Counted from the first letter of the stretch, positions 2,400 through 28,167 are shown. The stretch is DNA of 35,719 nt from a virus (UHGV-0071189); one strand, 5' to 3'. Notes: a model not told the origin generated them from the sequence alone. Numbers and translations are program-made.

Positions 2400-3509
2400 T
2401 CACGCTGTTTCTGCTATCCATTCCGGGATTTTTGCCTCAAGCTCAAGCTGCGTGGTAAAGCCGCTGTTATCAATGGTGTGCTCGGCTTTTGCAATAATCC
2501 AGTCCTGATTGTCGATGTCACTTTTGAAGCCTGTCACCGTGCCATGCATTTCGGGATAGAGTTCTGCACGTCCACGCGCCAGCGTGATGGAGAATGATGC
2601 GGCTCCGCGTTGTAGTTGCTGCCACTTTGCCGCCGCTGCGCGTCTTGCTGCCTGCTCGTTCTGATAAGTCTTGCGTAACACAAACACATTGCCTTCCGCG
2701 CCTTCCATATAATCACCTTCACGGCTGCTGCTTTTCTCCTTTTTGGGTTTTGGCGGTTTACGGCGTTTCACGCTGACTTTTTTCTTTTTCCCGTAATTAA
2801 GATCAAGCCAGTAGGCGCGTACCCCCGTATACGCCTCGCGGTCAGCAATACGGAACTGATGGCGATCGCCGCTGCTGCGTGTAATGGCGAACGAGGGCAA
2901 CGGCTGGCCCTGTGCGTTCACGCCACCACCTGGCATGATGAATAACAGATTGCCGCTTTTTACCGTGGTGATTGCGCCCAGCATTTCCGCCATGCGCGTA
3001 AGGAAGGACATATCGCTTTCTTCGGTCTGGTCGGCGTGGTCGATTTCGATATCCATCAGCATTTCGCTGATTTGCGGTTTCAGACCATACCGATGAGCGA
3101 TGGCGGATACCACACGCTCAACGGTCACATCATGCCAGGACACCTCACGTTTAACGTTAAATTCATCCCGAAAATCTGCGCTTCTGGCTGAAACAGTCAG
3201 CCTGTCCGGCGGTCCTTCGTGAGCGATTTCATCAACAATGTAAGTGCCTTTTTCTGTCAGCGGTTCTCCTTTCCAGCCAATGAGAACCGTCAGGCGCGCG
3301 CCCCGTGGCGGTAGCTGCAACTGACCATCCGCATCATCCAGCGTGATGGTGAGCTGGTCCGCCTCAAATCCCCGGTTGTCGGTCAGTGACAGGCTCATCA
3401 GGCGCTCTGCCACGCCTGACAGCGTTTTACCCTCCGCGAGAATATCAAAATCCGGCATTTTCACGGGGTCTGTGCCCTGACTGAGCAATTGCATGGTGCT
3501 GTCGGTCAT
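2400..3509 (-). CDS. D: Tail protein D (gpD, late control/tail hub protein)
   Basis: LSLTDNRGFEADQLTITLDDADGQL matches P2 gpD family; start taken at internal ATG 3509 with GGGAGGGA RBS (ORF track extends to 3641). Confidence 0.8.
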   Translation of the reverse strand: MTDSTMQLLSQGTDPVKMPDFDILAEGKTLSGVAERLMSLSLTDNRGFEADQLTITLDDADGQLQLPPRGARLTVLIGWKGEPLTEKGTYIVDEIAHEGPPDRLTVSARSADFRDEFNVKREVSWHDVTVERVVSAIAHRYGLKPQISEMLMDIEIDHADQTEESDMSFLTRMAEMLGAITTVKSGNLLFIMPGGGVNAQGQPLPSFAITRSSGDRHQFRIADREAYTGVRAYWLDLNYGKKKKVSVKRRKPPKPKKEKSSSREGDYMEGAEGNVFVLRKTYQNEQAARRAAAAKWQQLQRGAASFSITLARGRAELYPEMHGTVTGFKSDIDNQDWIIAKAEHTIDNSGFTTQLELEAKIPEWIAETA

Positions 3510-3666
3510 CTGTTCCCTCCCTGTGCGGCATGGTCGCATGTGCGTGCGGAGGGGGTTACTGCTTTTTGTTGTCGCCGTGGCGGGAGAACGTCGCAGGGGT
3601 GAGATTACGCGCGTGGTGGGTGATGATTGTTGCCGAATCATTTAACGGATACAAGGGGCTGAAGCT

Positions 3667-4851
3667 ATGAGTGAAACTCGTTTTCATGGTGCCCGTGTTA
3701 CGGAAAATACCGACCTGGTAACAGCGATTAACGATGTTGATTCCAGTGTTATCGGTATCGTGGCAACGGCGGATGATGCGGACGCGAAGCTGTTCCCGCT
3801 GAACAAGCCCACACTGCTGACCCGCGTCAATGACGTGCTGGGAAAATGCGGGACAACGGGGACGCTTTATCGTGCGCTTAAGGCCATTGCAGACCAGGTG
3901 AGCACAAAGGTGATCGTCGTTCGCGTGGCTGAACACAAAGAAGAAGACGGAAAGACGCAGGATCAACTGGTTATCGGTGGTTCTGAGGATGACGGCAGCT
4001 ATACGGGGATGTATGCGCTGCTTGTTGCAGAGCAGGATGAAAGCATCGGATACCGTCCGCGTATTCTGGCCGCGCCGGAGCTGGACACGGAGGCTGTAAC
4101 AAAATCCCTGTGCGTGATTGCAGGTAAACTGCGCGCGTTTGTGTATGCCTCATGTTACGGCTGTAACACGATGGCTGAGGCGATTACCTACCGCCAGAAA
4201 TTCAACGAACGTGAGGTGATGCTCTTATGGCCGGACTTCATCGCCTACAACCCGAAAAGTGGCAAAAACGAAACGTTCCCCGCGCCTGCCTATGCGTGCG
4301 GCCTTCGTGCGTACATTGACCATGAGCAGGGATGGCACAAATCATTGTCCAACGTTCCGGTTAAAAATGTGCTGGGGATGTCGAGGCATGTGTTCTGGTC
4401 GTTGCAGGCCGAAGACAGCGATGCCAACAGCCTCAACAACAAAGAAATCACGACCATTATTCGTCGCAACGGGTTCCGCTTCTGGGGCAACCGCACACCG
4501 GAAACGAACGCCTACATCTTTGAGGTGTATACCCGAACCGCACAGGTGCTGGCTGATTCAATTGCGGAAGCGCAGTTTGAAACCATCGACAGTCCACTGA
4601 CGCCTGCGAATGTGAAGGATGTTATCAGTGCCATCAGGGCAAAACTGGATTCGCTGGTTACTGCCGGGAAACTGATTGGTGCGGAGTGCTGGTATGACGT
4701 GGTGGATAACGGCACCACGAATTTACGTCAGGGACGTGTGCGTATTCGCTACAAATATACGCCTGTTCCCCCGCTGGAAGACATGGAGCTTTACCAGACG
4801 TTTACTGATGAATTCTTTGGTCCCGCATTTGCGGTGCTGGGAGGTGCCTGA
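3667..4851 (+). CDS. FI: Tail sheath protein FI
   Basis: FPLNKP, EQGWHKSLSNV, RRNGFRFWGNRT, YTPVPPLE motifs match P2 gpFI; 394 aa. Confidence 0.9.
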   Translation: MSETRFHGARVTENTDLVTAINDVDSSVIGIVATADDADAKLFPLNKPTLLTRVNDVLGKCGTTGTLYRALKAIADQVSTKVIVVRVAEHKEEDGKTQDQLVIGGSEDDGSYTGMYALLVAEQDESIGYRPRILAAPELDTEAVTKSLCVIAGKLRAFVYASCYGCNTMAEAITYRQKFNEREVMLLWPDFIAYNPKSGKNETFPAPAYACGLRAYIDHEQGWHKSLSNVPVKNVLGMSRHVFWSLQAEDSDANSLNNKEITTIIRRNGFRFWGNRTPETNAYIFEVYTRTAQVLADSIAEAQFETIDSPLTPANVKDVISAIRAKLDSLVTAGKLIGAECWYDVVDNGTTNLRQGRVRIRYKYTPVPPLEDMELYQTFTDEFFGPAFAVLGGA

Positions 4852-5363
4852 TGGCTGTACCAAAACATCTTCGCTTTTTTACGTTGTTTGTGGATGGTGA
4901 AAACGAAGTGGGTAAAGTGACATCCGTCACGCCGCCCAAACTGACGCGCAAAACCGACAGCTATCGTGGTGGTGGCATGATGGGGGCGGTAAGTATTGAT
5001 CTCGGTCTGGACGACTCCGCGCTTGATGCGAGTTTTGTCATGGGGGGAGCTGTTCGTGCGCTGTTCCTTAAATATGGCGGCACGATTGACGGCACGCTGC
5101 TGCGTTTTGCGGGTGAATACTACACCGATGCAGAAAGCGATCTGTATGAAATCGAGATGCGTGGGCGTGTGACGGAAATTGATATGGGGGAAGCCAAACA
5201 GGGCGAAGCCACATCACACACTTACGCTGTCAAAAACACCTACTACAAGCTGAGCGTTAACGATCGCCCGCTGTGGGAAATCGACCTGTTGAACCACATC
5301 TACCGGAAGGACGGCAAGGACATTGTGCCTGACCGTATCCGTTCCGCGCTTGGGCTTGGCTGA
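4851..5363 (+). CDS. FII: Tail tube protein FII
   Basis: 170 aa immediately after sheath gene (ATGA-type coupling), size and position of P2 gpFII. Confidence 0.8.
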   Translation: MAVPKHLRFFTLFVDGENEVGKVTSVTPPKLTRKTDSYRGGGMMGAVSIDLGLDDSALDASFVMGGAVRALFLKYGGTIDGTLLRFAGEYYTDAESDLYEIEMRGRVTEIDMGEAKQGEATSHTYAVKNTYYKLSVNDRPLWEIDLLNHIYRKDGKDIVPDRIRSALGLG

Positions 5364-5418
5364 TAAGTAATATGCAGGCTGCGCAGTGCGTCGCCTCTGA
5401 CTGAAAAGGAGACAACTG

Positions 5419-5793
5419 ATGAAAGACATCGATACTGAAACCCGGAATAACACCGTGGCGGATGATGTGACGGCAGGTGAGGATATGACTGTCGAACGTG
5501 GCGTAAAACTGACCCGACCAATTGAGCGTGGTGGCGAAAAAATCACGTATGTGGAGATCACCGGGGCTATTGAGCAGGCTGGATCCCTGCGTGGTCTGTC
5601 GCTGTCTGATGTGCTGAATCTGAAAGCGGATACCATGTTCACGCTGTTGCCTCGCGTGACCTCGCCACGACTGGATGAAGTGATGATTAAAAAAATGTCG
5701 TCACGCGATTTTATTCAGTTGTGCGCTGTGGCTGTAAATTTTATGAGCGAGCCAGACTCTGGCGCGAAGAGCGTGCAGGAGACGGCAGCGTAA
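5419..5793 (+). CDS. E: Tail assembly chaperone E (zero-frame product)
   Basis: GSLRGLSLSDV...LPRVTSP resembles P2 gpE; precedes tape measure gene. Confidence 0.7.
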   Translation: MKDIDTETRNNTVADDVTAGEDMTVERGVKLTRPIERGGEKITYVEITGAIEQAGSLRGLSLSDVLNLKADTMFTLLPRVTSPRLDEVMIKKMSSRDFIQLCAVAVNFMSEPDSGAKSVQETAA

Positions 5794-5957
5794 TCACCCT
5801 GGTGTGCTTTGAGCACATCGAAGATCTGGTGGCGGATATTGCCGCCATTTTTAACTGGTCGCCCGCCGAAATCTTCATGATGACGCCCGGCGAAGTGGTT
5901 AGCTGGCGTGAGCGGGCGGCACTTCGCAGCGGGAATGCAGACAATGAAGACTCTTGA
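5419..5957 (+). CDS. Tail assembly chaperone E+E' made by programmed -1 frameshift (slip at A7 5689..5695 or AAATTTT 5736..5742)
   Basis: -1 frame is open from 5691 and encodes conserved E' C-terminus (VCFEHIEDLV...WRERAALRSGN); two slippery heptamers in the overlap. Confidence 0.55.
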
Positions 5958-8751
5958 CATCCGGGTCGCTTTCAGCGCCGTTGACAGGCTGACCCGGCCT
6001 GCCGAAAACGCCCGCCGCCTGATGGGGCAGTTTGGTGACTCCATCCAGCGAACGCAGGGGGCGATCAAAAATCTCGAGCGTCAGGCGCGTTCATTTGAGC
6101 GCGCCCGTGACGCTGTCAGTAAAGCGGATGCTGGCATATTGAAAGCACGACGCCAGCTTAACGCCCTTAATCAGTTACAACGCACGGGTACAGTGCTCAG
6201 CGAAAAACAACAAAAGCTGATGCAGCAGTTAAGCACCCGGCTTGAACGCCTGAATGAATCGCGCACACGGGAAATTCAGAAAATGCGGGAACTTGGCGGA
6301 GAGCTGAAACGCCACGGCATTTCCCTGACAGGCAGCGATAACACCATCCAGCAGGCCATCAGACGCACCGAACAGTACAACAACCAGCTTGAACGCGAAC
6401 GGCAGGCGCTTGCGCGTGTAACGCGGGCGCGTGAGCGGTATTCGCGCGCGCAGGAAACAGCGGGAAAACTGAAAACAGGTGGTGCGCTGGCAATTGGTGC
6501 GGCAGCGGCGGGCGGCTATGCTGCCGGGCGTTTTTTGCAGCCTGCGATCGGGTTCGGCAAAGAGATGTCCCGCGTTCAGGCACTGACGCGAATCGACAAA
6601 AACAGCCCGCAGTTTAAGGCGCTGCGTGAGCAGGCGTTAAAACTTGGCTCTGAAACACAGTTTACTGCGAGTGATGCCGCCAGTGGGCAGAGCTTTCTGG
6701 CAATGGCTGGGTTTACTCCGCAGGCCATTCAGGCCGCATTGCCCGGTGTTCTTAATATGGCGCTGGCAGGTGGCGTCGAACTCGGCGAGACGGCTGATAT
6801 AGGCTCCAATATCCTCACACAGTTCAACCTGACAGCCGATCAAATGGACCGGGTTGGCGATACGCTGACAGCAGCATTCACCCGGACCAATACTGATTTA
6901 CGCGCGCTGGGCGAAACCATGAAGTATACCGGTCCGGTTGCCGCAAAACTTGGTATCAGTCTTGAAGAAGCGGCGGCCATGGCCGGGATGCTTGCCAATA
7001 ATGGTCTTCGCGGAAGCGATGCTGGTACGGCCATGCGCGCAAGTCTGTCCCGCCTTGCATCACCGCCAAAAGCTGCGGCTGATGCACTGAAAGAGCTGGG
7101 GGTGTCAGTTGCTGACGCCAGAGGCAAAATGCGCCCGATGGAGAATGTGCTGCTTGATCTCTATAAGGCGACACAAAAATACGGACAGGTGGACCAGGTC
7201 TCCTTCTTCAAGGACATCGCCGGAGAAGAGGCGTTCGTTGGTTTGCAGACGCTTGTTGCGGCGGCTGGTTCAGGAGAACTGCAAAAACTGACCAGAGAAT
7301 TGCAGGGGGCAAGGGGAGAGGCCGATCGCGTTGCAAAAGTAATGGCCGATAATCTTGATGGGGACCTGAAAAATCTCGACAGCGCATGGGAAGGTCTTCG
7401 TATTCGCATCAGTGATCTGGTTGACGGTCCGCTGCGTTCTGTCACGCAGTGGCTCACGCGGGTGCTTGAAAAAATCACCTCGCTGGCGCAGGCCCATCCG
7501 GTACTGACGCGCCAGCTACTGATAGCAGGCAGTGCGTTGCTGGCAATGACTGCAACGATTGGCTCGTTGTCGCTGGTTATTGGGGTGCTTTACGGGAAGC
7601 TGGCCACCCTGCGTCTTGGTTTCGACATTCTTACCCGGTCAATGAATGTCATCAGGGTGTTGCCTGCGCTGTGGGGAATGGTGACGGGTTCTGTTTCTTT
7701 GCTGGGAGGCGCTATCGGGGCGCTGTTCAGTCCGGTTGGTCTTATCGTGGCTGCGCTTGCCGGAGCTGCCGTTCTTATCTGGAAATACTGGGATCCCATC
7801 AGGGTATTTTTTGCCGGGGTGTTCAGCGGGATTATGGAAAGGCTGACCCCGTTGCGCGAAACCTTTGAACGGTTTGGTCCTGTTTTTGACGCAATCGGAA
7901 GCGGGATCAGCCAGGTGTTTAACTGGTTTAAATCGCTGCTGTCACCGATGGAGTCCAGCAAGGAAACGCTGGATAAATGTACCAGTGCTGGCGAGATATT
8001 CGGTAACGTTCTTGGCGGTGCGTTACAACTTGTTCTGACACCTGCAAAAATGCTACTGGATACGCTGGCGTGGATACTTGAAAAACTCGGTGTCCTTCCG
8101 GATGAAGCGGAAAGGGCGCGCAAGAAAATCGAAGACGCACAGCGTGCGGCCATTCTTCAGGACAAGGTTGCCTTGCTTCAGGGGGACCTGGCGAAAATCA
8201 ATCCGCCGAAGCCTGTGGAAAATGGCAATGGCACCGGAGGTGATAAACCCAAAGACAACAAACCGCTCACAGACAGCAATACCGGGACGCTACGCAGACT
8301 CAGCAAAATTGCTGATAACACAGGTAAGCTGGTTGATGAGACGAAAAAACGCATTGGCCCCGGCGATATTGTCTTTAAGAACCTGCCCCGCGCACTTGCT
8401 GTTCGTGGGGAGTGGCAGGAGCGGAAGATTGCGCAGGTCAGTAAGCCTGCCCCCGCAATTAATATCACACCCGTGGTCCCGGCTCCGCTGCTTCCGGCGC
8501 TGGTCCCTGTTGTTGCGGCCAGCTCCCGCCCGGTGGCGGAGGCCATACGATCGCCAGTGGCATCAGTTCCTGTAACTTCCCGTAACCGGGAGCCTGTTGC
8601 CTCCGGATTTGGTGGTGAAATTCATGTTCATCTGCATAACGTTGTTACGCAGAATCCCCGCGAACTGGCGAAACTGGTCGGTGAAATGGTCAGGGCAGAA
8701 ATGGAACGGCGCGCCCGTGCCGGGCGTGGCAGTTTTTACGATAAAGATTGA
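5908..8751 (+). CDS. T: Tail tape measure protein T
   Basis: 947-aa protein with coiled-coil N-terminus and Gly/Ala-rich hydrophobic central region, directly after E/E'; GTG start in track, true start may be ATG at 5935 or 5944. Confidence 0.85.
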   Translation: MSGRHFAAGMQTMKTLDIRVAFSAVDRLTRPAENARRLMGQFGDSIQRTQGAIKNLERQARSFERARDAVSKADAGILKARRQLNALNQLQRTGTVLSEKQQKLMQQLSTRLERLNESRTREIQKMRELGGELKRHGISLTGSDNTIQQAIRRTEQYNNQLERERQALARVTRARERYSRAQETAGKLKTGGALAIGAAAAGGYAAGRFLQPAIGFGKEMSRVQALTRIDKNSPQFKALREQALKLGSETQFTASDAASGQSFLAMAGFTPQAIQAALPGVLNMALAGGVELGETADIGSNILTQFNLTADQMDRVGDTLTAAFTRTNTDLRALGETMKYTGPVAAKLGISLEEAAAMAGMLANNGLRGSDAGTAMRASLSRLASPPKAAADALKELGVSVADARGKMRPMENVLLDLYKATQKYGQVDQVSFFKDIAGEEAFVGLQTLVAAAGSGELQKLTRELQGARGEADRVAKVMADNLDGDLKNLDSAWEGLRIRISDLVDGPLRSVTQWLTRVLEKITSLAQAHPVLTRQLLIAGSALLAMTATIGSLSLVIGVLYGKLATLRLGFDILTRSMNVIRVLPALWGMVTGSVSLLGGAIGALFSPVGLIVAALAGAAVLIWKYWDPIRVFFAGVFSGIMERLTPLRETFERFGPVFDAIGSGISQVFNWFKSLLSPMESSKETLDKCTSAGEIFGNVLGGALQLVLTPAKMLLDTLAWILEKLGVLPDEAERARKKIEDAQRAAILQDKVALLQGDLAKINPPKPVENGNGTGGDKPKDNKPLTDSNTGTLRRLSKIADNTGKLVDETKKRIGPGDIVFKNLPRALAVRGEWQERKIAQVSKPAPAINITPVVPAPLLPALVPVVAASSRPVAEAIRSPVASVPVTSRNREPVASGFGGEIHVHLHNVVTQNPRELAKLVGEMVRAEMERRARAGRGSFYDKD

Positions 8752-8757
8752 GGAGTC

Positions 8758-9252
8758 ATGGCTATGATGATGATCTACGGCATGTTTGTTTTTGAGCTGC
8801 GCACGCTGCCGCATCAGCAGTTACAGCAAAACAAAAGCTGGCGGCATGTAAAAAATGAACGCGTTAACCGTTCAGCAAGCTGGCAGTATATCGGTGCAGG
8901 TGATGATCGCATCGTTCTTTCTGGTGTGCTTTATCCTGAAATTACAGGTGGCGAAGTGTCGCTGTCGCTGCTGACCACGCAGGCGTATACAGGACGACCC
9001 TGGCCTTTGATTGATGGTGTCGGGCAGATTTACGGCATGTATGTCCTGACCGGAACGAATACGACCCGTTCCGAGTTTGATCGCTACGGTAAGGCGAAAA
9101 AGATAGAATTTTCACTGACTCTTGAACGCTGTGATGAGGATTTGCGGGAGCGCCTGCAATCCTCATCGTTCAGTGATATGCTGTCCGGCTTCAAAGATAA
9201 GGTGACATCATCTCTTAACAGCGCGGCCAGTTCAGTTAAAGGGCTGTTCTGA
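8758..9252 (+). CDS. U: Tail protein U
   Basis: N-terminus MMMIYGMFVFELRTLPHQQLQ...WRH...VLYPEITGG matches P2 gpU; GAGGAG RBS. Confidence 0.8.
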   Translation: MAMMMIYGMFVFELRTLPHQQLQQNKSWRHVKNERVNRSASWQYIGAGDDRIVLSGVLYPEITGGEVSLSLLTTQAYTGRPWPLIDGVGQIYGMYVLTGTNTTRSEFDRYGKAKKIEFSLTLERCDEDLRERLQSSSFSDMLSGFKDKVTSSLNSAASSVKGLF

Positions 9253-9261
9253 TTTAACACA

Positions 9262-9291
9262 AAAACCGCTAATGGTCAGATTAGCGGTTTT
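9262..9291. terminator. Bidirectional terminator: perfect 12-bp stem AAAACCGCTAAT/ATTAGCGGTTTT, loop GGTCAG, between convergent U and invertase
   Basis: Seen directly; flanked by A-run and T-run; right arm overlaps the invertase stop codon. Confidence 0.6.
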
Positions 9292-9880
9292 CATTTTCCT
9301 GAGTCTGCCCGGTTGTTTCTTCAGTCTGTATATCGCCTACAGGGTGATAACGATAAATCGTCGATGTGCCAATGCCGTAAATTATTGCCAGTTGTTTTCT
9401 GTCGTGCCCGTTTTTGATTAGCCTTGCTATTTGCTCATGCTGTTCTTTTGTCAGCTTCGGTCGACGTCCGCCTGTGCGCCCCCTTGCGCGCGCTGCCGCC
9501 AGCCCGGCCAGTGTACGTTCAACAATTAATTCACGTTCCATTTCAGCCAGGGCACCCATCACGTGGAAGAAAAAACGCCCCATTGGAGAAGATGTGTCTA
9601 TGCTGTCGGTCAGACTGCGAAAATTAATCCCTCGCTCCCGTAGTTCCCCGACGAGAGAAATCAGATGTTTCATGCTTCGCCCGAGGCGATCCAGTTTCCA
9701 GACAACCAGCGTGTCACCTTTTTGAAGGCGCTTTAAAGCGCGTTTTAATCCCGGTCGGTCTGTCTTTGTCCCGCTTAATTTATCTTCAAATATTTGTTCA
9801 CATCCTGCACAAACAAGAGCGTTTCGTTGCAGGTCTGTATTCTGGTCATTTGTTGATACCCTTACATAGCCAATCAGCAC
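9281..9880 (-). CDS. Site-specific DNA invertase, serine recombinase of the Gin/Hin/Cin/Pin family
   Basis: LIGYVRVSTNDQ catalytic-serine motif, resolvase core and C-terminal HTH (GTSTIYRY); start taken at GTG 9880 with GGGAGA RBS (track start TTG 9898). Confidence 0.85.
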   Translation of the reverse strand: MLIGYVRVSTNDQNTDLQRNALVCAGCEQIFEDKLSGTKTDRPGLKRALKRLQKGDTLVVWKLDRLGRSMKHLISLVGELRERGINFRSLTDSIDTSSPMGRFFFHVMGALAEMERELIVERTLAGLAAARARGRTGGRRPKLTKEQHEQIARLIKNGHDRKQLAIIYGIGTSTIYRYHPVGDIQTEETTGQTQENENR

Positions 9881-9934
9881 ACTGAATCTCCCGTCCAAAA
9901 GCGCAAATCATGCCATGCAGGCCAGAAACGGCCA

Positions 9935-9960
9935 TTATTTAAAACCTCGGTTTACGAGAA
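9935..9960. repeat. gix/hix-like recombination site (right boundary of invertible segment), TTATTTAAAACCTCGGTTTACGAGAA
   Basis: Palindromic AAACC-TC-GGTTT core typical of Gin/Hin crossover sites; inverted copy at 12613..12638. Confidence 0.75.
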
Positions 9961-10656
9961 CTCGGCACAAGCGGGGAGAAAATACCGTTACTCAGTACAG
10001 CGAATACCTGGACTAATCGACAAACATTCAGCGGTGGCCTTTCTGGGGAACTGTCCGGCAATGCCGCTACTGCAACAAAGTTGAAAACAGCACGAAAAAT
10101 TGCTGGAGTTGGTTTTGATGGTTCTAGCGATATTTCAATTAGTGCCAAAAATGTCAATGCATTTGCACTCCGACAAACAGGTAATACTGTTAATGGTGAT
10201 ACATCCGTTGGATGGAATTGGGATAGTGGTGCATATAACGCCCTGATTGGTGGTGCATCTGCATTAATTCTTCACTTTAATATAAATGCTGGTAGCTGTC
10301 CTGCCGTACAATTCCGTGTGAATTATAAAAATGGTGGCATTTCCTACAGGTCGGCTCGTGATGGTTATGGGTTTGAATTAGGTTGGTCAGATTTCTATAC
10401 CACGACACGAAAACCTTCAGCGGGAGATGTTGGTGCATATACGCAGGCAGAATGTAACTCAAGGTTTATTACAGGTATTCGCCTTGGCGGCCTGTCATCT
10501 GTTCAGACATGGAATGGTCCCGGCTGGTCTGACAGGTCAGGTTATGTCGTTACGGGTTCAGTTAACGGAAACCGTGATGAATTAATTGATACAACACAGG
10601 CAAGGCCAATTCAGTATTGCATTAATGGGACGTGGTATAACGCGGGGAGTATTTAA
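9949..10656 (+). CDS. Alternative tail-fibre C-terminal coding segment (Hv'), silent in this orientation; no start codon of its own
   Basis: Frame open from just inside the gix site (stop TAA at 9940..9942 lies outside); encodes fibre-like sequence ...NAATATKLKTARKIAGVGFDGSSDIS... Confidence 0.7.
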   Translation, partial: GLRELGTSGEKIPLLSTANTWTNRQTFSGGLSGELSGNAATATKLKTARKIAGVGFDGSSDISISAKNVNAFALRQTGNTVNGDTSVGWNWDSGAYNALIGGASALILHFNINAGSCPAVQFRVNYKNGGISYRSARDGYGFELGWSDFYTTTRKPSAGDVGAYTQAECNSRFITGIRLGGLSSVQTWNGPGWSDRSGYVVTGSVNGNRDELIDTTQARPIQYCINGTWYNAGSI

Positions 10657-10658
10657 CG

Positions 10659-11192
10659 ATGATGCACTTAAAAAACATTACTGCTGGCAACCCTAAAACA
10701 AAAGAGCAATACCAGCTAACAAGGCAATTTAACATCAAATGGCTTTATTCAGATGATGGAAAAAACTGGTATGAGGAACAAAAGAATTTCCAGCCAGACA
10801 CTTTGAAAATGGTCTATGACCATAACGGCGTTATTATTTGTATTGAAAAGGATGTTTCAGCAATTAATCCGGAAGGCGCAAGCGTCGTTGAATTACCTGA
10901 TATTACAGCAAATCGCCGGGCTGATATTTCGGGGAAATGGATGTTCAAAGATGGCGTAGTGATAAAGCGAACTTATACCGAGGAAGAGCAGAGGCAACAA
11001 GCGGAAAATGAAAAGCAAAGCCTGTTGCAACTTGTCAGGGATAAAACCCAGCTATGGGACTCACAGCTACGGCTGGGCATCATTTCCGACGAGAATAAAC
11101 AAAAATTAACCGAGTGGATGCTCTATGCGCAGAAAGTCGAATCTACAGACACCTCCAGCCTGCCAGTAACGTTTCCCGAACAACCAGAATGA
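10659..11192 (+). CDS. Alternative tail fibre assembly protein (Tfa'), paired with the silent fibre tip
   Basis: 177 aa, same family and about half identical to the expressed Tfa at 11221..11748 (shared [28 protein letters not shown]). Confidence 0.8.
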   Translation: MMHLKNITAGNPKTKEQYQLTRQFNIKWLYSDDGKNWYEEQKNFQPDTLKMVYDHNGVIICIEKDVSAINPEGASVVELPDITANRRADISGKWMFKDGVVIKRTYTEEEQRQQAENEKQSLLQLVRDKTQLWDSQLRLGIISDENKQKLTEWMLYAQKVESTDTSSLPVTFPEQPE

Positions 11193-11195
11193 GAG

Positions 11196-11215
11196 AAGGC
11201 CCGATATTGGGCCTT
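11196..11215. terminator. Hairpin AAGGCCC-GATATT-GGGCCTT between the two convergent tfa genes (bidirectional terminator)
   Basis: Perfect 7-bp GC-rich stem between convergent stop codons. Confidence 0.5.
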
Positions 11216-11220
11216 AATTT

Positions 11221-11748
11221 TTACTCAGGCTTTTGTGGCCATTCGGGATTTGCTGTATCCACACGGCTGACCAGAACGCTGTAGCGTTCCCATGACTCCA
11301 GTCGTGTGCGTTCCTCATCCGTCGCCATATTCAGCCTGACAGCGCGTTCCAGTGGCTGAATAACGCTTTCAGCTTCAGAAAGCAACGCGACCTTTTGTGA
11401 TTCGGCCTGTTGTTGCTGTTCGTCTGCTGTATAAATCCGCTTAACCACAGTTCCGTCCTTAAACATCCACTTCCCTGAATCATCGGCACGACGATTGGCT
11501 GTTATATCTGGAATCTCAACGACACTAAAGCCTTCGGGATTAAGCGTTGAGGCATCTTTGGTTATGGCAACAATAATATTATTTTCGTCGTATACAATCT
11601 TTATGGTGTCGTCCTGAAAGTTATTTACTTCCTCATACCAGTTTTTACCGTCTTCGGACCATAACCAGATAACATCAAAATTCTTTGTTAGCTGATATTG
11701 TTCTTTTGTTTTTGGATTTCCGGACTTAATATTTTTTAAATGCTGCAT
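11221..11748 (-). CDS. G: Tail fibre assembly protein G (expressed orientation)
   Basis: 175 aa directly downstream of H; Tfa-family motifs. Confidence 0.85.
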
Positions 11749-11751
11749 AAT

Positions 11752-13902
11752 TTACACCTGTGCGACGTTATACCATGTGCCATTGATGTATTTTTGTATT
11801 GGTCTGAAGATGGCTTCATCATCGCCATCTACTTCACCAATGATTCTTAATCCGGTAATTGCGTGTCCGGCTTTTTCATAACGACCACCACGCGCCATCA
11901 ATTGAACAACACGCGTACCCAGGCGAACATCTTTTACATAGCGTGAATCAAAATTCCCCCAGTTGCTGGGCTGTATCTGACCGTTAACAGAAAATATTAC
12001 CGAGTTATCTGTATTTCGCTGGCTATAGAAATGCCATCCTGCCTCATCGCCTAACTCTGCAACTACTGGACGGGTTGAAGCACCCCATAAATTAAACGTT
12101 GCATTCTTTGTGGAGGTGTTGGAGCTGGATAGCGAGAACTTTTTACTATCACCTGCCTGAATGTTTTTAAAAGCAATAGCAACTCCATTCTGAAAGCGGA
12201 ATACTCGCTGACTATTAGCGTAAACATCCAGAATACCATCACCATTCTGTTTGAATCCGGTGTCATTATCACCAAGAACAATAGAGCTACCACCTAACGC
12301 ATTCGTCGTACCAACTCCAAGACTGCCATTAATGACGGCATTTACCAGAATATTTAGTGCATCCCATTTCAGCGTCATCAGGTCTTTTGTTGTGGTGCTC
12401 TGGCGGCTTCTCCATTTGAAATATTCATTGCCGTTGTCGCCTGTTTCAAACCACATGTATGAATCAGTGTCACCATCAGCATCATTTTTAAATCCAATCT
12501 TCGCCCAGTCAGTATTTCGAATCCAGGCAAGGATTGAGTCATTTTCAAAAGTAAGCCCACCGGACAAGGTATCGCCATTTTTTTGCACGGCGTTACCAGC
12601 CCTGTTTACCGTTTCCTGTAAACCGAGGTATTCGATAACGGCGGCAACGGTCGATTTCGCAAGAATATCCCGCCCGACTTTTGTCAGAGTTGCCAGGCTG
12701 GCGACATCATTCCCCGTAAAATACGGAAACCTGTCTGCCGCAGTAGCAAGCCCGGCCAGCGCCGTCAGGGTGGCATCTTTCGGTTGCTTACCCGCAAGCG
12801 CGTTAGTCATGGTGGTCGCAAAATTCGGGTCGTTGCCCAACGCCGCAGCCAGCTCGTTCAGCGTGTTCAGTGCATCAGGTGACGAATCTACAAGGGCGGC
12901 AATCGCAGCCATAACGAAAGCCGTGCTTGCGATTTGGGTATTATTCGTTCCCTGTCGCGCAGTTGGTGTTGTTGGCGTTCCGGTCAGCGCCGGGCTGTTT
13001 AATGGGGCTTTCTTATTTGTTTCATCCATTACCGCCTTAACCGCTTTCGATGTCGCGGCCAATGTTTCAGACGAGCTGTTGGTGGCACTACTGAGCTGGA
13101 CAATCCCTTTTTGTGCTGTCGTGGCGTCCTGAGCGGTATATTTTGCGTTAGCAAGATCATACGCGGCCTTTACTGCTTTCGGCGTTGCAGCCTGCGTTTC
13201 AGACGTGCTGTTGGTGGCGCTACTGAGCTGGACAAGGCCTTTTCGCGTCGTGCTGGCATCCTGCGCAGTATATTTACCGTTAGCAAGATCATACGCGGCC
13301 TTAACCGCTTTCGGCGTTGCAGCCTGCGTTTCAGACACGCTGTTAGTGGCGCTACTGAGTTGAACAAAGCCTTTTGCGGTCAGCGAGGCGTCCGGGTGAC
13401 GTCGTGACTGTTCATGCTCTTTCAGTTTGTCATCCACGTAATCCACTGTGGCCATCACCATGGTGTTATCCACGGTAAGCGCCACGGTGGCAGTGCTGGA
13501 TACGGTCAGAATGGTGCGAAATGTTTGTGCACGACCGGACCCTTCGGCAACGGCTGGCTTGTAACTTTCGGCAGTATTGCCCACCGCGATTAAATCGCCG
13601 TGCTCATCAAATACACCAATTTCCCGGATCCAGAATCCGCCCGTTTCTGGAGGAATAACCAGCTCTGCAATAATGCGGTTCTGATGTGTTGCGTCCAGGA
13701 TGACGCGATTAACAGTGTGTCGCCACACCTCATGCACCAGACGGGTCTGCTTACTGTCAGGTGTGGGCAATGTACCGCCACCGTCGCCCACGGCCATATG
13801 AGTCAGGCGGACAGGCTTACCATCTGGCGCGGCTGCCTGCGCTAATTTTTTTGCACCCGTATCGGTGATAACGGTTTTAAATTTTCGTGTTGTGGTACTC
13901 AT
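11752..13902 (-). CDS. H: Tail fibre protein H (constant N-terminal part 13902..~12626 plus variable C-terminal part inside the invertible segment)
   Basis: 716 aa; conserved fibre N-terminus; three tandem 39-aa repeats; gix site at codons VIEYLG. Confidence 0.85.
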   Translation of the reverse strand: MSTTTRKFKTVITDTGAKKLAQAAAPDGKPVRLTHMAVGDGGGTLPTPDSKQTRLVHEVWRHTVNRVILDATHQNRIIAELVIPPETGGFWIREIGVFDEHGDLIAVGNTAESYKPAVAEGSGRAQTFRTILTVSSTATVALTVDNTMVMATVDYVDDKLKEHEQSRRHPDASLTAKGFVQLSSATNSVSETQAATPKAVKAAYDLANGKYTAQDASTTRKGLVQLSSATNSTSETQAATPKAVKAAYDLANAKYTAQDATTAQKGIVQLSSATNSSSETLAATSKAVKAVMDETNKKAPLNSPALTGTPTTPTARQGTNNTQIASTAFVMAAIAALVDSSPDALNTLNELAAALGNDPNFATTMTNALAGKQPKDATLTALAGLATAADRFPYFTGNDVASLATLTKVGRDILAKSTVAAVIEYLGLQETVNRAGNAVQKNGDTLSGGLTFENDSILAWIRNTDWAKIGFKNDADGDTDSYMWFETGDNGNEYFKWRSRQSTTTKDLMTLKWDALNILVNAVINGSLGVGTTNALGGSSIVLGDNDTGFKQNGDGILDVYANSQRVFRFQNGVAIAFKNIQAGDSKKFSLSSSNTSTKNATFNLWGASTRPVVAELGDEAGWHFYSQRNTDNSVIFSVNGQIQPSNWGNFDSRYVKDVRLGTRVVQLMARGGRYEKAGHAITGLRIIGEVDGDDEAIFRPIQKYINGTWYNVAQV
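12613..12638. repeat. gix/hix-like recombination site inside H (left boundary of invertible segment), TTCCTGTAAACCGAGGTATTCGATAA
   Basis: Inverted copy of the site at 9935..9960; identical central GTAAACCGAGGT. Confidence 0.75.
13039..13374 (-). repeat. Three tandem 117-bp (39-aa) repeats within H (KG.VQLSSATNS.SETQAATPKAVKAAYDLAN.KYTAQDA)
   Basis: Repeats read directly in the H translation; also produce the repetitive spurious antisense ORF 13111..13407. Confidence 0.75.
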
Positions 13903-13904
13903 GC

Positions 13905-14435
13905 TTAATCGTCCGGATAAATGGTAATGACTTCACCGTCGTAAGTTGCTGCCGCCGCGAAAATATCACCAGGGATCTCCTGAATGATATTCAGCCCTGT
14001 CATGTGGCGGCTGACCGGGCGGGCATCAGCAATCAACCGCTCCATTTCCAGATACATTTCCTCCGTCACGCCACTGTCCAGCGTGCCCACTTCAACGGTA
14101 AATGTTCCCGGTTCTCCGCCGAACTCCCACCACTCAGACACACGAATGAGGTATCCCAGCGGCTCAATGGCCCGGCGCAGTGCGCTGATGGTTCCCTTGT
14201 GTCGGTGTATCAGCCATGCATCACGAATCACCTGTCGTTTTGTCTCTTCCGGCCAGTTGCGATCCCAGCGGTCAACGGAAAATGCCCAGGCGAGATAAGG
14301 CAGCAGGTGCACCGGGCAGGTGTCCGGCGACCACAGCGTGTTGAGGTCTACCGGGATGTCTGTAATGCGCGTTCCGACAGCTTCGGCACAACGCATGAAA
14401 TTGCTGGCTGATGGCGGTAACAGTGAATTACTCAT
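13905..14435 (-). CDS. I: Baseplate/tail protein I
   Basis: Size and position match P2 gpI; start set at internal ATG 14435 with AAGGTGG RBS (track start 14468). Confidence 0.75.
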   Translation of the reverse strand: MSNSLLPPSASNFMRCAEAVGTRITDIPVDLNTLWSPDTCPVHLLPYLAWAFSVDRWDRNWPEETKRQVIRDAWLIHRHKGTISALRRAIEPLGYLIRVSEWWEFGGEPGTFTVEVGTLDSGVTEEMYLEMERLIADARPVSRHMTGLNIIQEIPGDIFAAAATYDGEVITIYPDD

Positions 14436-25659: not shown

Positions 25660-27036
25660 GTGAAAAAAATAGATAAAAAGGATGCAAGAAAACGCTTTTT
25701 ACGTGGTTGGATTCGCTTTTTAAAAGGCGTTGAGAGAAAAAATAAAAGAAGAATTAAATATAAAGCCTATGAAAGGTTACATTTTTCTGACGAAGTAACA
25801 CCAGTGAAAAGTCAGGTGGCTACTTTTATTGAAAGTATTTCATCCGTAAAGAAATATGATACTGCAACTCTTCGTCGCAAAGAAGATAGAATAATAATAC
25901 CTAAATATTTCGATTTGTTTGATCATCCAGAAAAATCTCTTTTGTTTATTCATGGTGTAACTAGATTGATTGCCAGGGGTAAACGTAAATCATATTTGCT
26001 TGATTATACTAAAAATAAAAAGCATTGTTTAGGTGCGGAATGTCTCCTTGGTGTTGCACTGAGCTCAGCCAAACGTCACAATATAAATTTAAAAGATGCT
26101 CAAGTACAACTTAATGGCATTTATCCGAAGGATGAAAAATATTTAGAAATTATTCGTGACATCGGGTTGGTTAAAGAAATAAATAAAGTGACGCCAGGGA
26201 AGGTGCATGATGAAACAGAAAAATCGAAAAAAGATAACCCTAAGAAAAGAATATTCTCTGCTGATAGTATCGGCAAGGAAAATGCGTCTGCATTTGCACA
26301 AGATACCAAAAATAGAATGTCTGAGAAATTCACTAATTATATAAACGAGTGTCTAAGTGATCATCAATTAAAATTAGTTAGCAAGGCAGAAAACCATCTA
26401 ACATCTTGCATGGGCGAATTACTTGATAATGCAGAGAGACATTGTGGGCTTGAGCAGCGTCCGCGTTGGTATTTGAGGGGGTTTGTAAATAATGGCTTAA
26501 AACAGCCAACATGTGAAATAGCTGTTTTTAACTTTGGAAAAACTATTGATGAAACTTTTTCAGGACTTTCTTTAGAACATTATTCATATAACAATCACAT
26601 AATCCCTTATGTGGAAAAACACATAAATAAAAAAGGGATGTTTAGAGAAGGTTTGATTACAGTCGCTGCTTTGCAGGGGCGGGTTAGTTGTAAAAATGAA
26701 ACGGAGACAGATAGTTCTGGTACGGGAACCATTGAACTATTGAAGTTTTTCCAGGATATGCATGATAGTTTAAAAGAACTATCCAAAGAACTAAGTGGAA
26801 ACATCAGAATGTCTTTAATTTCTGGATGCACACATATAAACTTTGATGGTTCTTATAAGTTGAAAAAGCAAACGTTAGATAACCAAAGTGACAAATTCAC
26901 TTATCCATTTAATAATACAGGGCTTGAATCTGAACCAGATCGTACCTATCTTAAGTGTATGCAGAAAGCCCGTTTTCCGGGAGTTATGATTAATATACGT
27001 TTTCCTTTACCGGAAAATGCAACTCAAAGAACCTGA
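25660..27036 (+). CDS. Cargo operon gene 1: 458-aa Lys-rich protein with possible GHKL / anti-sigma-factor-kinase-like ATP-binding motifs
   Basis: GTG start with AAGGTG RBS; ELLDNAERH (N-box-like, about residue 253), NFGKT and SGTGT at G1/G2-like spacing; AT-rich; family assignment is motif-based only. Confidence 0.6.
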   Translation: MKKIDKKDARKRFLRGWIRFLKGVERKNKRRIKYKAYERLHFSDEVTPVKSQVATFIESISSVKKYDTATLRRKEDRIIIPKYFDLFDHPEKSLLFIHGVTRLIARGKRKSYLLDYTKNKKHCLGAECLLGVALSSAKRHNINLKDAQVQLNGIYPKDEKYLEIIRDIGLVKEINKVTPGKVHDETEKSKKDNPKKRIFSADSIGKENASAFAQDTKNRMSEKFTNYINECLSDHQLKLVSKAENHLTSCMGELLDNAERHCGLEQRPRWYLRGFVNNGLKQPTCEIAVFNFGKTIDETFSGLSLEHYSYNNHIIPYVEKHINKKGMFREGLITVAALQGRVSCKNETETDSSGTGTIELLKFFQDMHDSLKELSKELSGNIRMSLISGCTHINFDGSYKLKKQTLDNQSDKFTYPFNNTGLESEPDRTYLKCMQKARFPGVMINIRFPLPENATQRT

Positions 27037-27047
27037 GGAATAGGTAA

Positions 27048-27392
27048 ATGAAAATGGCAAATATTTATATAGATTTCAATAAATTAGTTAAAGATGGCGG
27101 CAAGAAATTATTTGCTGGGCGTGATAATGGTCGCAAGGCATATAGTTTCTTTGGCATAGATCGCTTTACTTTTGATAACAATGATAGGATTTTTCTATCA
27201 ATTCCGAATGGTGTGGTTGTGTCAAGCTCATACTTTTTGGGTATGCTAGAGAATATATTGCCTCTTTTTTCATCTCCGAATGAATTTTATAGCAGAACAT
27301 CTTTAGATGGAGTGAATTATAAAGAAGGAATGCTTTCTGAGCTGGATAGGGCTGTGAGAAGAGGATTACATCGAAATGTTCCGTTCTTCTGA
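27048..27392 (+). CDS. Cargo operon gene 2: 114-aa protein, possible STAS-like (anti-sigma-factor antagonist-like) domain
   Basis: GAGGA RBS overlapping gene 1 stop; RIFLSIPNGVVVSSSYFLGML resembles the DSSG.L phosphorylation loop of STAS proteins; speculative. Confidence 0.55.
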   Translation: MKMANIYIDFNKLVKDGGKKLFAGRDNGRKAYSFFGIDRFTFDNNDRIFLSIPNGVVVSSSYFLGMLENILPLFSSPNEFYSRTSLDGVNYKEGMLSELDRAVRRGLHRNVPFF

Positions 27393-28167
27393 TTTGTGCT
27401 CTGTTTTTAAAATGACAGCATTGCCTGTCATTTTTTTTGTTAATATATCCGCTTGCTCTGCGACATATCCAGAAAGAACCGCGTCTAACATGGATTCGCA
27501 AAATTCAGAGTCTCACGTAATAGAACCAAAGAGTGGAAACATTTTTAATGCTGATATATGCATTGGAAAAAATAGCGATCTAAAATTATGCAATAGTTAT
27601 GAAAGGAAGTTTACACCGCACCTTCTTTATGATAAACCTGATAATTATGTTCTGAATGGATATTACCCCTCAACCTCATCGGGGAATCTCTATAATATCG
27701 TTAGAGTTCCTGAATCAGGACCTGAATGGTACTCTATAGCAATTTCAATTATTGCGCTAATTGCATCTGTAGGAGTTCCTTTGTGGCAGCATTATAAAGG
27801 AAGAAATGAAGCTATAAACGAAGGGTATTGGTTACGAGAAGTTATTCTCCCTAAAATTAATGGATTAGCTTTTGAAGTTACGGAAGATTTTAAGGATGCG
27901 ATGGGGCTTCCCCCTGATGAATTTATATCATTACTAGATAGCCAACTATTTTCAAAGCTTGGGGAGTTAAGGGATTCATTATATCTATTTAAGGGTTTTT
28001 CTAAGTTGGAAAAAGATATTGAGTCACTTGATGGTATCTGTGATTTATTTGAGCAAAAGGTTTCTGATAATATTGATTCATCTATTGATACAAGGATTTC
28101 TGATGTATCAATCTTTCATGCTAGCTTAATAAGGGAGCTCATGAAAATGCATAGAAAAATAGGGTGA
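27376..28167 (+). CDS. Cargo operon gene 3: 263-aa predicted lipoprotein/membrane protein (candidate effector)
   Basis: N-terminal signal peptide with ISAC lipobox; internal hydrophobic helix WYSIAISIIALIASVGVPLW; overlaps gene 2 by 17 nt. Confidence 0.55.
   Translation: MFRSSDLCSVFKMTALPVIFFVNISACSATYPERTASNMDSQNSESHVIEPKSGNIFNADICIGKNSDLKLCNSYERKFTPHLLYDKPDNYVLNGYYPSTSSGNLYNIVRVPESGPEWYSIAISIIALIASVGVPLWQHYKGRNEAINEGYWLREVILPKINGLAFEVTEDFKDAMGLPPDEFISLLDSQLFSKLGELRDSLYLFKGFSKLEKDIESLDGICDLFEQKVSDNIDSSIDTRISDVSIFHASLIRELMKMHRKIG

Follow-up and report, generated by a model that had tools for sequence, protein, structure and literature searches.

A probable Gin-type inversion switch for the tail fibre of a P88-like Xuanwuvirus prophage, compared with the Mu G segment and phage P2

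The best-known invertible tail-fibre module is the G segment of phage Mu (also present in D108), in which the constant part of the fibre gene lies outside a segment carrying two opposed cassettes, each with a tip and a chaperone gene, with an adjoining invertase gene and 26-bp recombination sites that have TC as their central dinucleotide. Likewise, in the P segment of e14 (invertase Pin) and the C segment of P1 (invertase Cin), a serine invertase and inverted sites swap the C-termini of tail fibres. For P2-like prophages of the enteropathogenic Escherichia coli (EPEC) strain E2348/69, both orientations of invertible tail-fibre segments were found in clonal cultures by sequencing and polymerase chain reaction (Goldberg et al. 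2014, PMC4272514). The Z/fun hotspot of P2 was also noted to harbour DNA invertases whose neighbouring genes are inverted (bioRxiv 10.1101/2024.10.15.618418). Here we analysed a viral DNA of 35,719 nucleotides (UHGV-0071189; from here on, the window is this whole stretch), in which a serine invertase gene adjoins a segment of 2.68 kb that contains the 3′ part of the tail-fibre gene H and a second, silent fibre tip.

An initial annotation, made from the sequence of the window, had proposed that this locus, lying in a P2-type backbone, is a Mu G-segment-like switch with an invertase of the Gin/Hin family. Both parts of the proposal were borne out: the window corresponds to a prophage of the genus Xuanwuvirus (P88-like, Peduoviridae), and the switch is supported by the enzyme, by DNA homology, by the in-frame junction and by the existence of both orientations. 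We put a probability of roughly 95% on the locus being an active switch of the Gin type, which exchanges the tail-fibre tip of a P2-like temperate E. coli phage of the P88 type by site-specific inversion.

Public genomes contain the segment in both orientations. In the following, the tip that is joined to H in the window is called tip A and the silent one tip B. Complete E. coli genomes (5,426) were searched with the native junction and with the predicted inverted junction (end of gpU, invertase, left site and tip A; 1,451 bp), and a junction was counted as present at a coverage of 80% or more. The native junction, which consists of gpU, invertase and tip B, was found in 272 genomes, while the junction assembled in silico for the inverted state occurred in 104, where its full length was matched at identities of up to 99.7%. 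Inverted repeats can mislead assemblers, and in principle both public orientations could be assembly artefacts. The repeats in question are only 26 bp long, however, shorter than any read, and the inverted form occurs in 104 independent complete genomes with a coherent annotation of a 661-amino-acid fibre, which makes an artefact scarcely credible. The orientation bias of 72:28 across the genomes might result from selection acting on the lysogen instead of neutral flipping, a reading that we consider doubtful.

A direct comparison is offered by the strains NU14 (native orientation) and UTI89 (inverted orientation). In both, the prophage occupies the same chromosomal position between the same flanking proteins, with flanks that are 100% identical, and the annotated fibre has 716 amino acids in NU14 and 661 in UTI89. 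The NU14 locus, once flipped at the central dinucleotides, agrees with its UTI89 counterpart over 7,751 bp, with 0 mismatches. Moreover, the outer and inner half-sites are exchanged between the two strains in precisely the way expected for a crossover in the core, which places the crossover within ACCTCGGTTTAC. These comparisons indicate that the segment inverts with the crossover at the site core, a conclusion whose basis is comparative and not experimental.

RecA-mediated homologous recombination between the two cassettes would be another way to flip the segment. The two tail-fibre assembly genes are indeed related to each other (56% protein identity, about 70% DNA identity) and lie in inverted orientation. 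Recombination between them would, however, invert only the short stretch that separates them, whereas UTI89 and NU14 have their breakpoints within the 12-bp core that the 26-bp sites share, with the whole interior inverted intact. As an identity of 12 bp is also far below the requirement of RecA, we regard this explanation as extremely improbable.

The two sites themselves had been described in the initial annotation as inverted 26-bp elements of the gix/hix type, and both 26-mers are found exactly at the positions given for them. Each consists of a 12-bp half-site, the dinucleotide TC (GA) and a second 12-bp half-site, as in gix and hix, with the same core in both. The left site and the reverse complement of the right site are identical at 21 of 26 positions and have a perfect 12-bp core, ACCTCGGTTTAC, in common. 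When a degenerate gix pattern was searched with at most 3 mismatches allowed, it matched exactly twice in the 35.7 kb, at these two sites, compared with 0.00 expected matches (100 shuffles). In a weight-matrix scan of the window for half-sites, the two sites scored 33.7 and 31.5, the next best 26-mer 12.3, and a generic repeat finder independently returned the same pair. The inner half-site of the right site, GGTTTACAGGAA, is identical to the inner half-site of Mu gix, while three of the four half-sites differ from Mu gix. A shufflon with a third site was also considered, but the pattern search (3 mismatches) and the weight-matrix scan gave these two sites only; as the window has no third site, it was rejected.

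Between the sites, the two opposed sets of a tip and an assembly gene that had been noted over about 2.7 kb were confirmed as two converging tip-plus-chaperone cassettes. The central dinucleotide falls into a CTC (Leu) codon in both copies: on the minus strand this codon is Leu426 of H, and on the plus strand it is the CTC at 9946-9948, which lies in frame. The frame of tip B lacks a start codon of its own and opens directly after a TAA at 9940-9942. Inversion of 9947-12626 in silico joined it to the constant part of H in an uninterrupted reading frame of 661 amino acids through the sequence ...VIEYLGLRELGTSGEKIPLL..., as had been predicted, and the 716- and 661-amino-acid forms have a common prefix of 428 amino acids. 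The inverted junction introduces neither a stop nor a frameshift, the invertase gene is not a pseudogene, and both orientations exist in public genomes; each of these points could have spoken against the initial annotation.

The origins of the parts differ along the element. The constant part of H has 74% identity to P2 H. Tip A (residues 429-716 of H) is 98% identical to residues 382-669 of P2 H and 46% identical to Mu S, and its chaperone shares 97% of its amino acids with Mu U and 93% with P2 G. The C-terminal 165 amino acids of tip B are 89% identical to Mu S′, and the chaperone of tip B is 97% identical to Mu U′ at the amino acid level. Judged by these similarities, the element is a mosaic of P2 H-G genes, the 5′ part of Mu gin and the Mu G(-) cassette.

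Within the constant part of H, three tandem repeats of 132 bp (13034-13429, minus strand) encode 44-amino-acid Phage_fiber_2 units. The corresponding regions of Citrobacter phage phiSM and of strain TK3046 span 5,169 bp, i.e. 132 bp less than the 5,301 bp of the query; this shortfall in two relatives would fit copy-number variation of the fibre-shaft repeats.

The serine invertase gene, located just outside the segment as proposed, is an intact open reading frame (ORF) of 199 codons that begins 54 bp beyond the left site. Its start is likely the GTG at 9880 and not the TTG at 9898 of the ORF list: the GTG is preceded by GGGAGA, yields the Gin N-terminus MLIGYVRVST... and agrees with the 600-nt coding sequence in RefSeq, which is labelled 'DNA invertase' in NC_049391. 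Over its whole length the protein has 80% identity to Mu Gin, and only one residue differs within positions 1-119. The catalytic Ser9, aligned with Ser9 of Gin, and Met114 are conserved, and the Gin structures 4m6f and 3uj3 in the PDB match the protein at E=1e-99 to 3e-100 (4m6f at E=3e-100). From about residue 120 onwards the enzyme diverges from Gin, and nucleotide homology to Mu gin ends near 9492. Its C-terminal 63 amino acids score 52.6 bits against the DNA-binding domain of Hin and 42.8 bits against that of Gin, and the Hin DNA-binding domain 1hcr matches the invertase at E=2.6e-13. By these alignments the invertase is a mosaic, with a Gin-like catalytic domain and, over codons about 120-199 (9281-9520), a more Hin-like DNA-binding domain. 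With such a mosaic enzyme and half-sites that differ from those of Mu, the site preference might be partly orthogonal to the Gin and Pin enzymes of co-resident prophages; we regard this idea as doubtful. If it applied, several fibre switches in one E. coli cell would be controlled separately, without cross-complementation.

Could the sites and the enzyme be the frozen remains of a dead switch, with the orientations in the databases representing old, fixed alleles? Relic sites do exist in this family, as P2 has an orphan gix-like site in H without an invertase; furthermore, the half-sites of the window are imperfect (21/26), and the orientation of the window predominates (272 versus 104). Against this, the invertase has an intact ORF and a catalytic domain almost the same as that of the active Gin, the silent tip and its chaperone are still open and conserved, and across 7.75 kb the flip is the sole difference between NU14 and UTI89, a sign that it happened very recently. 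A relic is therefore very unlikely.

Dependence of the invertase on the host protein Fis can be considered from residues and from DNA. The substitution M114V makes Gin independent of Fis (PMC3575834). In Hin, the residues Q151, R154 and L155 are proposed Fis contacts, and only those invertases that depend on Fis conserve them (PMC3798978). When the invertase was aligned with Gin and Hin, its Q150, R153 and L154 proved to be the conserved counterparts of these three residues. Over its first 110 nt, the invertase coding sequence matches Mu gin at 100%. In the Gin system, the Fis-bound recombinational enhancer reportedly lies within the 5′ part of gin (Kahmann et al. 1985); together with the 110-nt identity, this leads us to infer that an enhancer has been retained here. 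A scan for sigma-70 promoters returned fewer matches than shuffled sequences, and none near the invertase start.

On this basis the following mechanism is proposed. Dimers of the invertase would bind both inverted 26-bp gix-type sites, and a synaptic tetramer would form with host Fis on the presumed enhancer in the 5′ portion of the invertase coding sequence. Ser9 would then cleave both sites at the central TC/GA, one pair of subunits would rotate by 180 degrees, the ends would be rejoined, and the 2.68-kb segment 9947-12626 would thereby be flipped. The late V-W-J-I-H operon would always provide codons 1-426 of H, according to a presumed promoter logic. In one orientation this part would continue into the P2 H-like tip A, giving the 716-amino-acid H followed by the G/U-like chaperone, and in the other into the Mu S′-like tip B, giving the 661-amino-acid H followed by the U′-like chaperone. 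Since the tip would depend on the orientation, we propose that a population of lysogens releases virions with two receptor specificities.

Several points weigh against an active switch in this form. The postulated change of host range derives from the homology of the tips to P2 H and Mu S′, and flipping in the lysogen of the window itself is deduced from near-identical relatives. The position of the enhancer is presumed from that described for gin, and so is the dependence on Fis and enhancer. In addition, the half-sites differ among themselves and from Mu gix (TTATTT, TTATCG and CGAGAA compared with TTATCC and CAGGAA); as both the half-sites and the DNA-binding domain have diverged from the Gin system, flipping rates may differ from those in Mu. 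Finally, neither 'invertase' nor 'inversion' appears anywhere in the paper on the host range of phage P88 (PMC5285337).

The coordinates of the element and its neighbours are compiled in Table 1. The perfect hairpin at which the genes for gpU and the invertase converge is likely a bidirectional terminator. The GC-rich hairpin between the convergent assembly genes is likely a transcription stop, judged by its match to the consensus only.

Table 1. Features of the invertible tail-fibre locus and its neighbourhood (positions in the window)
Feature	Position	Strand	Evidence or sequence
Tape-measure gene	5908-8751	+	
P2 gpU homologue	8758-9252	+	Pfam Phage_P2_GpU
12-bp perfect hairpin between converging gpU and invertase genes, overlaps invertase stop codon	9262-9291		
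Serine DNA invertase gene, 199 amino acids, GTG start	9281-9880	-	Pfam Resolvase E=1.4e-50, HTH_7 E=4e-13
Putative Fis-dependent recombinational enhancer (sis), limits approximate	9771-9880	-	Identity to Mu gin
Left gix-type site	9935-9960	+	TTATTTAAAACC TC GGTTTACGAGAA
Silent tail-fibre tip (tip B), start-less open frame	9946-10656	+	In-silico inversion; Pfam gp37_C, weak
Tail-fibre assembly (chaperone) gene of tip B, U′-like	10659-11192	+	Pfam Caudo_TAP E=4e-37
GC-rich hairpin between convergent assembly genes	11196-11215		T-run on + strand only
Assembly (chaperone) gene of expressed tip, G/U-like	11221-11748	-	Pfam Caudo_TAP E=2.5e-36
Tail-fibre gene H, present orientation, 716 amino acids	11752-13902	-	Pfam Phage_tail_fib, three Phage_fiber_2 repeats, Gp34_trimer
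Expressed tip A, 3′ part of H, within segment	11752-12625	-	
Right gix-type site, within H	12613-12638	-	Minus strand: TTATCGAATACC TC GGTTTACAGGAA
H constant part, codons 1-426, outside segment	12626-13902	-	
Homologues of P2 I, J, W, V and beyond	from 13905	-	

The region 8700-14000 of the window is 99.6% identical to the RefSeq genome P88_4B11 (Xuanwuvirus, Peduoviridae) and 97.4% identical to phiSM. The rest of the window contains P2-type genes for terminase, portal, capsid, lysis, baseplate, gpD, gpA, repressor and integrase, with Pfam matches that include GpU, GPD, GPA and integrase. From this gene content, the window appears to be a complete-looking P2-like prophage. Its genes and their order are of the P2 type (Q P, O N M L ... 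V W J I H G ... FI FII E T U D, gpA, int), with a single departure, the flipped FI-U block.

One statement of the initial annotation had to be corrected, namely that the switch occupies the G-to-FI junction, where P2 carries Z/fun. P2 has the gene order H, G, Z/fun, FI, FII, E, T, U, D, and only Z/fun departs from the common strand. In the window, the FI-FII-E-E′-T-U block (sheath, tube, E, E′, tape measure and U; 3667-9252, plus strand) is flipped relative to P2, while D (2400-3509, minus strand) keeps the strand of H; the same arrangement exists in P88_4B11 and in the UTI89 prophage. The invertase gene consequently lies tail-to-tail with gpU, and the switch is located between G and the 3′ end of gpU. 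An inversion at secondary sites as the origin of the flipped block was rejected, as the comparison of 3480-3700 with 9240-9300 and 9880-9970 found no gix-like site and no inverted repeat of at least 9 nt at the borders.

Two further regions of the window differ from the backbone in composition or content. An island of low guanine-plus-cytosine (GC) content (35-36% versus about 55% in the backbone) extends over 25660-28167 on the plus strand, between the portal gene Q and the replication gene A, at the position of the old/tin cargo hotspot of P2. It consists of three ORFs (25660-27036, 27048-27392 and 27376-28167), none of which had a match in Pfam, PADLOC or NCBIfam; homologues of the 458-amino-acid protein encoded here occur in Enterobacterales and Aeromonas and are annotated only as 'hypothetical'. 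The island may be an uncharacterised cargo or defence cassette. Beyond gpD, an ORF of low GC content (33%) at 1139-2308 on the plus strand encodes a DUF3800 domain. The genes at the equivalent place in P88_4B11 are different (MokW-like, hypothetical), which marks a second variable cargo spot.

Switches of this kind are textbook knowledge, and the exact element is already deposited and annotated in public phage genomes. An explicit account of flipping in Xuanwuvirus seems to be missing from the papers searched; the phiSM paper lists a predicted invertase only and does not describe an inversion. The present case illustrates that an invertible fibre switch can be identified correctly in a first reading of raw sequence. 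Prophages of the P88 type are common in E. coli, among them those of UTI89, NU14, IHE3034 and O145 strains, and they would be able to release particles whose fibre tip is either of the P2 type or of the Mu G(-) type. Experiments on the host range of P88-like phages and their engineering should therefore consider the orientation of the fibre segment. For annotators, the 'hypothetical protein' or 'partial tail protein' beside this invertase gene represents the silent fibre tip.

Among the described systems, the Mu G segment shares with this locus the layout outlined at the beginning, and three stretches of the window (9492-9955, 10158-11787 and 12325-12645) have 90-91% DNA identity to it. The backbone here is P2-like, however, and so is the constant part of H, which has only weak local matches to Mu S over the fibre repeats. 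The receptor-binding part of tip A resembles P2 H (98%) and not Mu S (46%), the first ~70 residues of tip B differ from Mu S′, and the DNA-binding domain of the invertase has diverged.

With the H-G region of P2, the locus has in common the V-W-J-I-H-G operon, tip A (98% identity) and G (93% identity). P2 H even contains an orphan gix-like site, TTATCGAATATCTCGGTTTACAGGAA, at about 10377-10402 on the minus strand, which is identical to the right site at 25 of 26 positions and lies in the same codon. P2 differs in that this single site is accompanied by neither a second cassette nor an invertase, and G is followed by Z/fun and then FI-D.

The same element is present in P88_4B11, where a DNA invertase, two tail fiber pieces and two assembly proteins are already annotated, and in phiSM, with an annotated invertase and two assembly proteins. 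In phage P88 only 63% of the region is covered, so that the contents of its cassette differ. The EPEC E2348/69 segments have Pin-type sites (AAACCTTGGTTTGGGAGAA) and lengths of about 1.6-2.0 kb, and one is a three-site shufflon, whereas the sites here are of the Gin type and the cassettes of the Mu G type; identity with those loci was rejected on account of the Pin-type repeats, the shorter segments and the different cassette. Finally, the Hin/hix system of Salmonella belongs to the same enzyme family, with the same 26-bp site architecture and, presumably, the same Fis/enhancer logic, and its DNA-binding domain is the closest to that of the invertase described here, but Hin flips a promoter, whereas here the coding ends of a fibre gene would be exchanged.

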